64,000 nucleotides of DNA. It comes from a virus. Lineage: Duplodnaviria > Caudoviricetes. Below, piece after piece: positions 6,076 to 34,663 of this stretch (the first letter of the stretch is position 1; each line of letters opens with the position of its first letter). The stretch lies in the IMG/VR virus record IMGVR_UViG_3300031853_000035, positions 2,575 to 66,574 of that record; one strand, 5' to 3'. The notes beneath the pieces are model-generated. The model made no database searches. It worked only from the letters and a program-made list of their open reading frames with translations, and was not told the DNA's origin. Both the position numbers and the translations under genes were made by a program.

Positions 6076-6100
6076 TCGCAAAATTTTCACTTCCTATAGT
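6076..6100 (+). promoter_or_regulatory. Phage-specific promoter motif, copy 1
   Basis: TCGCA aaattttCActtcc TATAGT. Confidence 0.75.
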
Positions 6101-6243
6101 AGAAAGGAGGTGGACCGGGTGGCCGGCATAAATCACGTCCGTCTGGCGTTGCTAACCAGACATCAGCACGTCTTAATGCCACATCTATAGAGCACATCAC
6201 CCATAAGGTCTTGGAGTAATTCAGGGCCTTATGTCTTTTTTTT
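6101..6243 (+). ncRNA. Short promoter-to-terminator transcript beginning AGAAAGGAGG (sRNA or 23-aa peptide)
   Basis: Flanked by the promoter motif and a cataaggtct/agggccttatg hairpin + T-tract; internal gtctgg/ccagac hairpin. Confidence 0.45.
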
Positions 6244-6252
6244 TCAAATCCC

Positions 6253-6290
6253 AAATTTTTCCCGGTGGGAATTTTTCGAAAATGTTTCAA
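6253..6290 (+). promoter_or_regulatory. Second-class motif, candidate late regulatory site (similar to 39422..39460)
   Basis: aaatttttcccggtgggaatttttcgaaaatgtttcaa, upstream of a structural gene block. Confidence 0.4.
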
Positions 6291-6304
6291 CGAGGTACTA
6301 TGAT

Positions 6305-6445
6305 ATGCTGAAAATACTGAAGAAGATATTCTGCAAACATGACTACAAGTTCGTACGCCTGTTATATGGTGACGAAATCAACGAGCATTGTGGTAAACGG
6401 AAAGAATATTGCTGTGTGAAATGCGGTATGTACAAATGGGAGTGA
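6305..6445 (+). CDS. 46-aa Cys/His zinc-binding-type protein (DUF1660-like)
   Basis: MLKILKKIFCKHDY...CCVKCG; GAGGT RBS; not in the supplied ORF track. Confidence 0.6.
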   Translation: MLKILKKIFCKHDYKFVRLLYGDEINEHCGKRKEYCCVKCGMYKWE

Positions 6446-6558
6446 CGGAGATGTTGTAATAAGTGCCCACCACGCATAAGGTGAAAGCACTGCGGACCAC
6501 GGTGGGACTTTTTATAATGACACTTTAAACTAACTTTATATTTTCGGAGGTAACGTAA

Positions 6559-6891
6559 TTGATCAAGAAAGACATAGAACTAACCAGAGGAGATACCCTT
6601 AGCTTCGACGTAACAATCTCTGAGATCGAAGATGTTACCGTCGAAAGCCTATACTTCTCGGTTAAGAAGAGACCGATGGATACTAGTTATATTTTCCAGA
6701 AGAAGTTAGAAGACGGAATAACATTTTTGGAAGAGAACAAGTATCGTGTCCGAGTTGCTCCGGAGGATACCTGTGAATTGCCTGCCGGGAAGTATACATA
6801 TGATCTGCAGGTCGGTCTCGGCAGTGATATTTACACACCACTTATGGGAACGTTTAAGCTTAACTGGGATGTAACGGAGGAAATCGAATGA
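6559..6891 (+). CDS. BppU-like baseplate/fibre N-terminal Ig-fold protein
   Basis: LTRGDTLSFDV...LYFSVKK...LPAGKYTYDLQV; GGAGGT RBS, TTG start. Confidence 0.65.
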   Translation: MIKKDIELTRGDTLSFDVTISEIEDVTVESLYFSVKKRPMDTSYIFQKKLEDGITFLEENKYRVRVAPEDTCELPAGKYTYDLQVGLGSDIYTPLMGTFKLNWDVTEEIE

Positions 6892-8153
6892 AAATAGAAT
6901 TTGAGTTTGATAACACCGTAATAGCCGATACAAGTACAGACCCATTTAGCGTTGATATTACAGGCGGCATCGGACCTCAAGGCTTGAAAGGTGATAAGGG
7001 CGATCCTGGAGAGCAAGGCGAACAAGGTCCGGCTGGTCCTCAGGGACCTAAAGGTGACAAGGGAGAGGTTGGGCCAATGGGTCCGACTGGTCCCGCCGGT
7101 CCTAAAGGAGATAAAGGTGACCCTGGTCCAAAAGGCGATGCTGGAGAACAAGGCCAAAAAGGAGAACCAGGAGATACCGGACCTCAAGGGCTTACAGGTC
7201 CAAAGGGCGATAAGGGTGATACTGGAGATCCTGGACCTAAAGGCGATAAAGGTGATACTGGTCCTGCTGGCCCGCAAGGCGAACCCGGCCCTAAGGGCGA
7301 TACCGGACCTCAAGGACCCAAAGGTGATAAAGGAGACACCGGTGAGCAAGGTCCAAAGGGCGATAAGGGTGCCACAGGAGACACTGGACCTCAAGGTGAA
7401 CAAGGTCCTAAAGGTGACAAAGGTGATACTGGTGAGACCGGACCACAAGGCCCAAAGGGTGACAAAGGTGATACTGGTGAGACCGGACCACAAGGCCCAA
7501 AGGGTGACACTGGTGAGACAGGGCCTCAGGGTGCGCGAGGACCGAAAGGTGATAACGGAGCTGATGGTGCCGATGGAGCTGATGGATATTCGCCAACGGC
7601 TTCTGTTAGTAAGACAGACGGTGTGGCGACGTTCACCGTAACGGATAAGAACGGGACAACGACAGTAGAGATCAACGACGGAACTTTAGCGAAACTTGTT
7701 ATCTTATCGTATGGAACTAGTACATGGAACGATTTCATTACCGCATACGAAGCAAACGCTATTGTTTATTGCCGTGCGTCATCTAGTTCAAACCCGGCTA
7801 CTGGAAGCAAGACCAGAATGGCATTCATGGCTTACGTCAACAAGGAGAACGATCCAACAGAAGTCGAGTTCCAGTATTACAGATCCGTATCATCGCATTC
7901 CATCAGTCAGCAAGGCGATCAGGTATATGTTTACAAGCTAAACAAGACCAATGGATGGTCAGTTACGGTTCGCGAATCGTATACAAAAATCGTCCCGGGG
8001 ACCAATATCGGAACGTCATATGCTAGCGGGTCGTTAACAATCAATTTCACCGGATCTGCTGATAGTATTGGTGCTATTCCGGCGCCAGCGTCACCACCAA
8101 CCGGTGCCGTTCTTACGTTCAACGGAACAGAATGGGTTGCGCAGCTGCCTTAA
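6888..8153 (+). CDS. Collagen-like tail fibre protein
   Basis: About 200 aa of continuous Gly-X-Y (GPKGDKGD) followed by a globular C-terminal domain. Confidence 0.9.
7413..7508 (+). repeat. Perfect 45-bp tandem repeat (2 copies plus a partial) in the collagen region
   Basis: ggtgacaaaggtgatactggtgagaccggaccacaaggcccaaag at 7413 and 7458. Confidence 0.9.
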
Positions 8154-8176
8154 GTAAGATTTAAAGGAGATACAAT

Positions 8177-32890: not shown

Positions 32891-32916
32891 AAGTGATTTT
32901 TGGAGGTAAAAACGAT

Positions 32917-34146
32917 GTGAGTGTGCAGCTAGACGACCAGCAGCTAAGAGCCATACAAGAACTGGATAACGGGTATATACTAAACGCCGATGTTGGAACT
33001 GGAAAGAGCAGAACGGCTGTCGGATATTATTACTTAAAGGTTTGTGAAGGCGGAGCAATCATTAACGGATCTGGCAAATTTAGAAAGATGAAACACCCAA
33101 GGGACCTTTATATTATTACAACAGCAAAAAAGCGAGATTCGATTGAATGGGATAAAGAGCTTGCCATGTTTCTTTTGTTTCGTGGTGAAAACAAAGAGAT
33201 GGGTGTTAACGTAACAATTGATTCTTGGAATAACATCAAGAAGTATAGGAAAACGTTTGGGGCGTTCTTTATATTTGATGAGCAACGGCTTAAAGGATCT
33301 GGTGCTTGGGTAAAGTCTTTCTATGACATTGCAAGAAAGAATAAGTGGGTTTTATTATCTGCCACACCTGGTGACACATGGCAGGATTATATTCCAGTGT
33401 TCGTTGCTAACGGGTTTTATCGTAACAAAAGTGACTTTAATATGCAGCATGTAAAGTTTGCAAGATTTAGTAAGTATCCAAAGATTGAGGGATATTTTAA
33501 TGAAGGCGTCTTGTTTAAACATAAAAAAGACATAACAGTTACGATGGAACTTGAGAAAGATGTGATTAAGCATTACGAAGATGTTTGGTGCTCTTATGAT
33601 AAGACTATTTATAGAACCATATGGAGAGATCGCATTAATCCATATGACGGAGAGCCAATAGAAGAAACTGGAAGCTTGTTCTATTTGATGAGAAGGGTGG
33701 TGAACTTAGATGTATCTCGGTTGGAGGCTGTTAGAGATATTGCTTCAAGGCATTCGAAAGTCATCGTCTATTACAATTTCACAGATGAGCTCCACGCACT
33801 TAGGGAACTATTTGCAAAGCTCGGCTTTGATATCGGAGAATGGAACGGCGAAGTACATTCTGACATACCAGGAGGATCAAAGTGGGCGTATCTCGTTCAG
33901 TATATCGCCGGATCTGAAGGATGGAACTGCATAGATACCAATGCGATGATATTTTACTCGCAGTCATATTCTTATTCACAAACTGTGCAAGCCGAAGGAA
34001 GGATAGACAGACGAAACACGCCGTTTGCTGATTTATATTACTACAAACTTAAAAGCAGGTCACCCATTGACCTTGCAATAGCGAGGGCTCTTAGTAAGAA
34101 AAAGAACTTTAATGAAAAGACATTTGTTGAAAGGAGAACAAAATGA
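32917..34146 (+). CDS. SF2 (SNF2-like) helicase
   Basis: DVGTGKS, FIFDEQR, LLSATP, SEGWN, QAEGRIDR. Confidence 0.88.
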   Translation: MSVQLDDQQLRAIQELDNGYILNADVGTGKSRTAVGYYYLKVCEGGAIINGSGKFRKMKHPRDLYIITTAKKRDSIEWDKELAMFLLFRGENKEMGVNVTIDSWNNIKKYRKTFGAFFIFDEQRLKGSGAWVKSFYDIARKNKWVLLSATPGDTWQDYIPVFVANGFYRNKSDFNMQHVKFARFSKYPKIEGYFNEGVLFKHKKDITVTMELEKDVIKHYEDVWCSYDKTIYRTIWRDRINPYDGEPIEETGSLFYLMRRVVNLDVSRLEAVRDIASRHSKVIVYYNFTDELHALRELFAKLGFDIGEWNGEVHSDIPGGSKWAYLVQYIAGSEGWNCIDTNAMIFYSQSYSYSQTVQAEGRIDRRNTPFADLYYYKLKSRSPIDLAIARALSKKKNFNEKTFVERRTK

Positions 34147-34313
34147 CAGAGGTTGAAATTTACAATGAAGTAAGGCGTATGAGGAAAGATAATCCTGGAA
34201 TTACCGGAAAAGAGATGGCCGAAAAGCTAGGCGTTAAAAATACTTACGGCGAGGCATCAGTCGTAGAGATTAGACGATTATATTCTCTTGGGGCCATTAA
34301 AGCAAAAGGGTAA
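34143..34313 (+). CDS. 56-aa HTH protein resembling the first HTH of the RNAP candidate
   Basis: KDNPGITGKEMAEKLGVKN versus AKYPGITELELAERLGVYN; GAAAGGAG RBS. Confidence 0.65.
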   Translation: MTEVEIYNEVRRMRKDNPGITGKEMAEKLGVKNTYGEASVVEIRRLYSLGAIKAKG

Positions 34314-34322
34314 TAGAACAGT

Positions 34323-34351
34323 TTGACACATTGCTTGTGGATGTATATACT
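34323..34351 (+). promoter_or_regulatory. Near-consensus host sigma-A promoter
   Basis: TTGACA-17 nt-TATACT. Confidence 0.75.
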
Positions 34352-34373
34352 CTTAAAAAAAGGAGGTGCGCTT

Positions 34374-34616
34374 ATGAGCAATGTGTTTTGTTACTATGAT
34401 CATGAGTATCAGTTTATAGAAACTGAGCTTGATGAAGAGGCTGCTGAAATTATAGAGGATCAGGTTAACTCTGGACGCTGCGCTGATTGTAACAGACCAA
34501 TTCTTGATTGGGGAGATGACGCTAATAAGTTTACAGATCTGACTTTAGAATTCCCAATGCCAGTAAATGTTTGCTACAAATGTGCAGCGAGAGCGTTCAA
34601 AGAAGGTAGGATGTAA
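34374..34616 (+). CDS. 80-aa acidic zinc-ribbon protein
   Basis: AAAGGAGG RBS; CADC and CYKC pairs. Confidence 0.7.
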   Translation: MSNVFCYYDHEYQFIETELDEEAAEIIEDQVNSGRCADCNRPILDWGDDANKFTDLTLEFPMPVNVCYKCAARAFKEGRM

Positions 34617-34638
34617 AACAATTATTATATTTTTGCCC

Positions 34639-34663
34639 TCGCAAAAAAAACAACTCCTATAAT
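34639..34663 (+). promoter_or_regulatory. Phage-specific promoter motif, copy 16 (upstream of the RNAP operon)
   Basis: TCGCA aaaaaaaCAactcc TATAAT. Confidence 0.8.

Follow-up and report, generated by a model that had tools for sequence, protein, structure and literature searches.

The 64,000 nucleotides (nt) of DNA analysed here, referred to as the window, are bases 2575-66574 of the 66,574-bp IMG/VR record IMGVR_UViG_3300031853_000035, a virus of the Caudoviricetes, and they contain sixteen copies of the motif TCGCA-N7-CA-N5-TATAAT. Judging from the sequence, it is near certain that these copies are real promoters, and we consider it probable (about 0.68) that they are the cognate promoters of the single-chain RNA polymerase encoded by the phage at 35717-38863. 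The initial annotation of the window had proposed either the phage RNA polymerase or a host RNA polymerase modified by the phage. This proposal is supported, and the comparative evidence favours the phage enzyme, through the co-occurrence of motif and polymerase in both directions, the absence of the motif from host genes and a family hexamer that reads TNTWAT. The phage is listed in two bovine gut DNA runs and in no RNA run. A 111-bp repeat is found at both ends of the record, so that the genome is taken to be circular, and all genes are carried by the + strand.

A repeated element of about 30 bp

With at most one mismatch, TCGCA-N7-CA-N5-TATAAT was matched 15 times, always on the + strand, against 0.17 matches expected (the largest number in any shuffle was 2). 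The 16th copy, at 20987, has two mismatches (CT for CA, and TATAGT as the hexamer) and was recovered with a score of 31.8 by a position weight matrix (PWM) built from the 16 sites and scanned over both strands of the whole genome, including the 2.5 kb outside the window. The 16 sites score 28.9-42.4 and every other position of the genome, on either strand, scores 8 or less. The total is exactly 16 copies, lying between 6076 and 34663, with none in the head-tail-lysis block. The coordinates, the single orientation and the absence from the head-tail block given in the initial annotation were all confirmed by these scans.

The spacer between TCGCA and the hexamer is 14 nt long in 16/16 copies, its position 8 is C in all of them and its position 9 is A in 15 of the 16; the recount gave the same values as those first reported. 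The first seven spacer nucleotides had been described as nearly all A/T, which holds for positions 2-7 (95 of 96 cells) and not for position 1, which is A or G. As had been claimed, the hexamer is TATAAT in ten copies and a single-base variant in the other six (TATAGT in two, TTTAAT in two, TCTAAT and TATAAC in one each); three copies have no A at hexamer position 2. Conservation reaches further than the core noted at first, with C before the hexamer in 13/16 copies and two purines after it in all 16. The complete core is composed of TCGCA, a purine, six A/T, CA, five loosely conserved bases ending in C, the hexamer and two purines. Outside this core of about 30 bp the flanks show no conservation, and the copies are therefore not recent duplications.

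The lack of conserved flanks bears on the idea that the copies are plain "-10 only" sigma-A promoters whose upstream conservation comes from the recent duplication of a promoter cassette. The same element, which the genome announcement of the Gordonia cluster DJ phage Vardy describes as a TATAAT-containing intergenic motif of 50 bp present five times, was indeed read there as a sigma-70 -10 promoter (PMC9671010). Recent duplicates would not be expected to differ in their flanks, and none of the 16 copies has a TTGACA-like -35 box at 16-18 nt or a TG extension, the -35 position being unconserved. What is conserved is TCGCA at 14 bp, which bears out the earlier remark that the spacer is off sigma-A geometry. 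Classical -35/-10 pairs were not enriched between 5500 and 25000 (36, against 37.6 expected), pairs matching at 10/12 or better on the + strand were depleted (4, against about 12 expected from shuffles), and a consensus sigma-A scan misses the 16 motif sites.

Ordinary sigma-A promoters are present in the phage at two intergenic places, both unlike the repeated motif, and it is these TTGACA-type promoters that stand upstream of the integrase gene and of the polymerase operon, where use by the host would be expected, a further point against the "-10 only" explanation. The best canonical one in the window, at 34323..34351 on the + strand (TTGACA-17-TATACT, 11/12), lies 316 nt upstream of copy 16 and is, by its sequence, a candidate host-driven entry to the polymerase operon. 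A host promoter of this type was considered as a conserved feature of the family and rejected: matches of at least 10/12 occur in 38/68 relatives' loci, at no fixed position and counted without a shuffle control. The promoter at 34323 may be peculiar to the present phage. The second, at 9771..9799 on the + strand (TTGAGC-17-TATAAT), has an extended -10 box with TG before it and is located 32 nt ahead of the start at 9831. It falls within the 5' end of the long integrase open reading frame (ORF), of which the true start is probably the ATG at 9831 (MKKEDLYLKNH...).

Motif and polymerase in related phages

The putative reader of the motif is the 1048-aa product of 35717..38863 (+ strand), which matches PHROG 4291 (E 1e-293) and which, according to its sequence and its structural model, is a two-barrel polymerase in a single chain. 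Its DCDGD metal loop corresponds to residues 559-563, with D559, D561, G562 and D563 invariant across 27 homologues, and sigma region-4-like helix-turn-helix (HTH) matches are found near residues 106-150 and 1022-1047. The AlphaFold model has a predicted local distance difference test (pLDDT) value of 80.6 and its first 49 residues are disordered. A sequence search against PDB chains gave zero matches and the fold search alone succeeded. The best Foldseek matches are the non-virion polymerases P74-26 gp62 and P23-45 gp64, then QDE-1 and RDR2, followed by the large subunits of cellular polymerases; they are significant, with a probability of 1.00, yet their template modelling (TM) scores are low (0.2-0.37). 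More than 8000 homologous proteins were matched in one search, and the family is found in 250 isolated phages of Arthrobacter, Gordonia, Streptomyces, Rhodococcus, Lactococcus, Faecalibacterium and others. A supercluster with an HTH-flanked protein resembling an RNA-dependent RNA polymerase as its signature has been described in a preprint that does not discuss promoters (10.1101/842583).

The polymerase gene belongs to a conserved endonuclease-exonuclease-polymerase operon, the second gene of which encodes a Cas4-type exonuclease (35025..35720, + strand, PHROG 3953). It is directly followed by a small conserved gene (38880..39179, + strand, PHROG 4303), and the same order was seen in the five isolated relatives checked (1706, ReqiPoco6, Scap1, Tanis and Gordon). 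The PHROG 4303 product may be a cofactor of the polymerase.

The motif search in related genomes suggested with the initial annotation gave a positive answer. The element recurs, with its 14-nt geometry unchanged, in phages of Clostridia, Lactococcus, Arthrobacter, Gordonia, Rhodococcus and Streptomyces, and each of these phages encodes a PHROG 4291 homologue. In relatives with 37-48% polymerase identity the motif is always forward and in the same genome region, a persistence of the core that "-10 only" promoters made by recent duplication would not explain. The Arthrobacter phages Mudcat and Circum have 7 and 9 copies, respectively (at most two mismatches), of TCGCG-N7-CA-N5-TATAAT. The form CGCA-N7-CA-N5-TATAAT-G is present in 13 copies in Rhodococcus ReqiPoco6, in 11 in Gordonia Tanis and in 6-7 in Arthrobacter Gordon. 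Lactococcus 1706 harbors about 12 copies of yCACA or TCGCA-N7-CA-N5-TATAGT-AGAAAG, and Streptomyces Scap1 (61% GC) 6 copies of TCGCA-N7-C(A/C/T)-N5-T(A/G)TAGT-GAGACCCC. Lytic relatives without an integrase have the motif equally. In 65/86 relatives one copy lies about 0.8-1.4 kb (mostly about 0.9-1.1 kb) upstream of the polymerase gene, ahead of the endonuclease-exonuclease-polymerase operon.

The hexamers of these 65 polymerase-operon promoters are TTTTAT in 33, TATAAT in 15, TATTAT in 7, TGTTAT in 4, TTTAAT in 3 and others in 3, with T (36), A (23), G (4) or C (2) at position 2. The family hexamer is TNTWAT, and one prophage mixes TATTAT, TTTTAT, TTTAAT and TATAAT. In the sigma-A -10 box, the A at position 2 (A-11) is near-invariant. 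As any base is tolerated at this position, the family hexamer does not fit a sigma-A -10 box.

This result is the first that weighs on a different use of the motif, in which the host RNA polymerase would read the hexamer as a -10 box through sigma-A while a phage activator or sigma remodeller bound at TCGCA..CA (about -30) would replace the -35 box, in the manner of MotA/AsiA. The ten TATAAT hexamers among the 16 copies and the location of the upstream block at the position of a MotA box are in agreement with such a mechanism. A family hexamer that is mostly TTTTAT, and thus without the A needed by sigma region 2, is not, and neither is an element that stays almost constant in phages whose hosts belong to two phyla. 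A Pfam search of 40 non-structural ORFs, most of the small ones being without a family, gave zero sigma, AsiA-like or MotA-like proteins. Sigma remodelling is, in our estimation, unlikely.

The association was also examined in the reverse direction, with viral contigs of at least 40 kb picked solely by an exact match to the motif (n=41). The polymerase is encoded in 37/41 of these contigs, in 16/16 of those with at least two matches and in 26/28 of those at least 90% complete. In five bacterial genomes with related prophages (Cuneatibacter, Butyrivibrio, Faecalibacterium and two others), matches to the loose motif cluster in the prophages, and over the remaining 3-6 Mb of each host genome the match rate is about that of the reversed-pattern control. 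The motif is therefore a signal of the phage lineage and not of a host regulon. This absence of use by the hosts, added to the geometry, the flanks and the persistence among relatives, makes the "-10 only" explanation very improbable. The Cuneatibacter caecimuris genome shows two separate motif clusters (C5:180062-203653 and C10:70335-75584) and probably carries two prophages of the polymerase family. In SPbeta, the gap between yonO and yonK and a 35-kb stretch contain zero copies, which places the motif with the HTH-fused PHROG 4291 branch and not with YonO.

Probable RNA starts and transcription units

Sixteen sites, in this phage and its relatives, have a Shine-Dalgarno (SD) core 0-6 nt past the hexamer, followed at a suitable distance by a start codon that opens an ORF of 35 codons or more; in one example TATAAT is followed immediately by GAGGAGG, eight bases and ATG. 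A start about 7 nt past the hexamer is disfavoured, because all or part of the SD would be lost where it begins within about 3 nt. Leader structures give a similar indication. In the unit of copy 2 the closing stem (9169) starts at the first base past the hexamer, and so does the leader hairpin behind copy 16 (34664..34713, + strand; -23.6 kcal/mol, z -3.6), which is made of a purine-rich 5' arm and a pyrimidine-rich 3' arm and is followed by a T-run. The corresponding hairpin of the polymerase-operon leader starts 0-2 nt past the hexamer in 41/54 non-redundant relatives, 33 of these with a T-run, and in most relatives its structure is kept and its sequence is not. This suggests that the hairpin exerts attenuation control on polymerase and late expression.

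Taken together, the SD positions, the leader stems and the TNTWAT hexamer lead to the conclusion that +1 of the RNA is probably the conserved purine right after the hexamer, a geometry like that of T7-type promoters. The distance of 5-8 nt expected in the initial annotation is probably too long; 0-2 nt fits both the SDs (0-6 nt) and the leader stems (0-2 nt). A start predicted at the edge of the hexamer does not fit a sigma-dependent open complex, and SDs and leader stems that begin 0-3 nt past the hexamer are a further argument against sigma remodelling.

The copies, all on the + strand, head units of several kinds. Copy 1 (6076..6100, TATAGT) begins 1 nt past the endolysin stop and opens a unit of about 140 nt, up to a terminator at 6202-6233, of which the sole ORF has 23 codons. 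Similar short terminator-bounded units in which no ORF was found follow copy 2 (9144..9168; about 130 nt), copy 6 (12664..12688; to the terminator at 12773-12804) and copy 7 (12810..12834; about 230 nt), the last of which has the top PWM score. From promoter to terminator, these four candidate small-RNA units extend over 6101-6243, 9169-9316, 12689-12805 and 12835-13070. They gave zero Rfam matches, and the two that were folded had z values of -1.5 to -1.6.

In copies 1 and 3 the SD begins 3 nt past the hexamer; copy 3 (9359..9383) precedes a 74-aa ORF with its ATG at 9402. In nine copies the SD is 20-27 nt and the start codon 33-40 nt past the hexamer. Copy 4 (11155..11179) adjoins the T-run of a terminator and precedes an ATG at 11213, and copy 5 (11836..11860, TATAAC) comes after the terminator at 11808-11829 and before an ATG at 11895. 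Copy 8 (13072..13096) and copy 9 (13380..13404, TCTAAT) precede ATGs at 13133 and 13440, and copy 10 (13718..13742), after the terminator at 13680-13710, precedes one at 13783. An operon at 14188-18905 is downstream of copy 11 (14127..14151, TTTAAT), and ATGs at 18959 and 21050 are downstream of copy 12 (18896..18920, TTTAAT) and of the degenerate copy 13 (20987..21011). Copy 14 (21547..21571) is separated from the gene 21642-22406 by a 70-nt leader with a weak hairpin and a T-run; as a significant structure this hairpin was rejected, being no better than shuffles (z -0.67). The replication block, with a primase-polymerase (26889-31112) and a helicase (32917-34146), is downstream of copy 15 (22560..22584). 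Copy 16 (34639..34663) is located 1078 nt upstream of the polymerase gene, the strong leader hairpin coming directly after it.

This arrangement can be compared with that of a protein-binding array, such as a set of repressor operators, L5-type "stoperators" or replication or recombination sites, in which promoter activity would not be the main function. Mycobacteriophage L5 stoperators are asymmetric, in one orientation and in short intergenic gaps, and the present site is likewise asymmetric, repeated in one orientation and in short intergenic gaps of a temperate phage. However, an AT-rich hexamer in fixed phase with a purine behind it, followed either by a structured RNA or by an SD at the uniform distance of 20-27 nt, has the traits of a promoter, and the copies come after terminators and ahead of genes. 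A terminator T-run adjoins six or seven of the 16 copies, and terminator-like hairpins are enriched in the motif region (31, against 14.7 expected), several of them ending in a T-run that abuts TCGCA. The motif is also as frequent in lytic relatives without an integrase, and no repressor resembling cI turned up in the scanned ORFs. There is only a slight chance that binding of this kind is the main function of the repeat, although the motif could have a second role as an operator.

The surroundings of the repeat were annotated as well. Rfam at the gathering threshold gave zero matches within the window, ARAGORN found zero tRNA, and a megablast of the promoter-rich region against phages gave zero matches. 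The middle region encodes three DUF6353 paralogues (19734-20495, 21642-22406 and 24205-25167). The protein 14688-15242 has an N-terminal dATP/dGTP diphosphohydrolase domain (PF18909), which is known in phages with modified DNA bases; there was no PurZ among the ORFs scanned, and a PurZ-type DNA modification was rejected. The single 677-aa ORF 46942-48975 has a full-length match to the head maturation protease PHROG 3270; protease-capsid gene fusions have been reported in Arthrobacter cluster AM/AU relatives. The stretch 39290-39400, between the polymerase module and the genes of an HNH endonuclease and the terminase, contains a long inverted repeat together with a G run (GGGGGAGGGGGGGG). This is likely the cos region, because the termini of relatives with defined ends fall there: in isolated relatives of this kind the terminus lies immediately downstream of the polymerase gene and its small neighbour.

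A predicted phage transcription system

The polymerase gene sits just before the cos-like G-run. Its homologue in phage 1706, orf75, is named a "structural protein" in the depositors' record, and the ReqiPoco6 record has the same label (record annotation in both cases). The N terminus of the polymerase (35717-35860) and that of a 301-aa protein (41995-42110) have a short motif in common, an acidic run and then (I/L)MH(Y/H)G. The 41995 protein is part of the packaging module, just upstream of the large terminase gene, and matches DUF7211; the shared DUF7211-like N-terminal motif may be a packaging or capsid-targeting signal. Delivery of the polymerase in the virion is plausible because of the label of the 1706 protein, the disordered shared tail and the location of the gene at the genome end.

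In the mechanism that we propose, the promoter would cover about 30 bp. The TCGCA block would occupy about -25 to -21 and be separated by an A/T-rich turn from CA at about -13/-12, the TNTWAT hexamer would span about -6 to -1, and +1 would be a purine. The three blocks are about one helical turn apart and would therefore all be on one face of the duplex. The sigma-region-4-like HTH modules of the polymerase would probably read TCGCA and CA, and the catalytic core would open the easily melted hexamer. Such promoters would serve the polymerase operon itself as well as the replication block, a number of small early genes and several short units that are non-coding. The polymerase is probably packaged in the virion and injected, as the annotation of the homologue suggests, and these units could then fire without the host RNA polymerase. 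Host sigma-A would keep the two classical promoters, before the integrase gene and upstream of the polymerase operon, and on prophage induction the 34323 promoter could seed the polymerase operon. The late block may be reached by transcripts from copy 16 that read through the joined cos site, there being no strong terminator in between, or else it may be transcribed by the host polymerase. As a whole, a self-contained system delivered in the virion, in which a DUF7211-like tail serves for packaging, HTH modules read duplex DNA, RNA starts after TNTWAT independently of the host, the promoter-polymerase pair is conserved from Firmicutes to Actinobacteria and a terminator hairpin at +1 times the polymerase and late genes, is a tentative picture to which we give less than even odds.

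Several points weigh against the assignment of the promoters to the phage polymerase. No start-site, RNA or enzyme assay for any member of the family was found in the literature. The ten perfect TATAAT hexamers would still permit contact with host sigma-A, and covariation between polymerase and motif (e.g., of hexamer position 4 with residue 229) was rejected as support, the high mutual information tracking one clade. The polymerase gene lies behind its own promoter and needs either virion delivery or a host bootstrap, and the evidence for the virion is the annotation of a homologue of 37% identity. Another conserved phage protein, for instance the product of the small gene after the polymerase gene, could be the true specificity factor. 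In addition, the SPbeta enzyme YonO transcribes late genes, whereas the late block here has zero copies of the motif (PMC5467207).

The closest precedent for the assignment is phage P23-45, whose two-barrel polymerases each have their own promoter motif, AT-rich for the virion enzyme gp96 and GC-rich for the non-virion enzyme gp64, with mapped start sites and with co-occurrence with the enzyme as support (PMC10770324). The present case is similar in the type of polymerase, in a private repeated motif before early genes and in the co-occurrence of motif and enzyme, and gp64 and its P74-26 homologue are the top structural matches of the 35717 protein model. The motif sequences are unrelated, however, the P23-45 enzymes are without a fused HTH, and start sites have been mapped for P23-45 only. 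Like the promoters of T7, T3 and SP6, the element is compact and conserved, with an upstream specificity block, an AT-rich melting block to -1, a purine-rich start and many copies on the same strand, and the changes between lineages fall in the specificity block (here TCGCA, TCGCG, TCGTA and CCACA). It is longer (about -25 to +2), and the T7-type enzymes differ in having a right-hand fold and a specificity loop, in contrast to the two-barrel fold here and a recognition that is probably made by HTH modules.

YonO of SPbeta is also a single-chain two-barrel polymerase from a temperate Firmicutes phage, and the structural genes of both phages come after the polymerase gene, one small gene and a long non-coding gap. 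YonO differs in serving a late operon from one start site, whereas the copies here are in the non-structural region; its promoter sequence, P_YonO, and its factor requirement were stated to be unknown (PMC5467207). T4 middle promoters similarly have, in place of a -35 box, an upstream block (the MotA box at -30) that is about 12-14 bp away from a hexamer resembling TATAAT. They depend on host sigma-70 with a canonical -10 box and a start about 7 nt downstream, features that do not fit the present element. The strategy may match that of N4, in which early transcription is started by an injected polymerase and does not depend on the host, but N4 has hairpin promoters and a T7-like enzyme, and inside the present motif there is no inverted repeat.

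The Vardy motif is evidently the same element. It is intergenic and located in the middle region among genes for small membrane proteins, and 11 copies occur in Tanis, also a DJ phage. The Vardy description concerned one genome and a sigma-70 -10 box, with no link to a phage polymerase or to a wider family, and we found no publication that assigns a promoter to the HTH-fused two-barrel polymerases. The present analysis corrects the sigma-70 reading and should improve the annotation of transcription units in related phages. As several relatives are easily grown (Lactococcus 1706 and the Gordonia, Arthrobacter and Streptomyces phages), standard assays could test promoter recognition, the contribution of the HTH modules and whether the polymerase travels in the virion, and a compact orthogonal expression system for Gram-positive bacteria could result. 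For a large family of single-chain two-barrel polymerases there is now a sharply defined 30-bp candidate promoter, which bears on the way in which enzymes of the YonO type recognise theirs.

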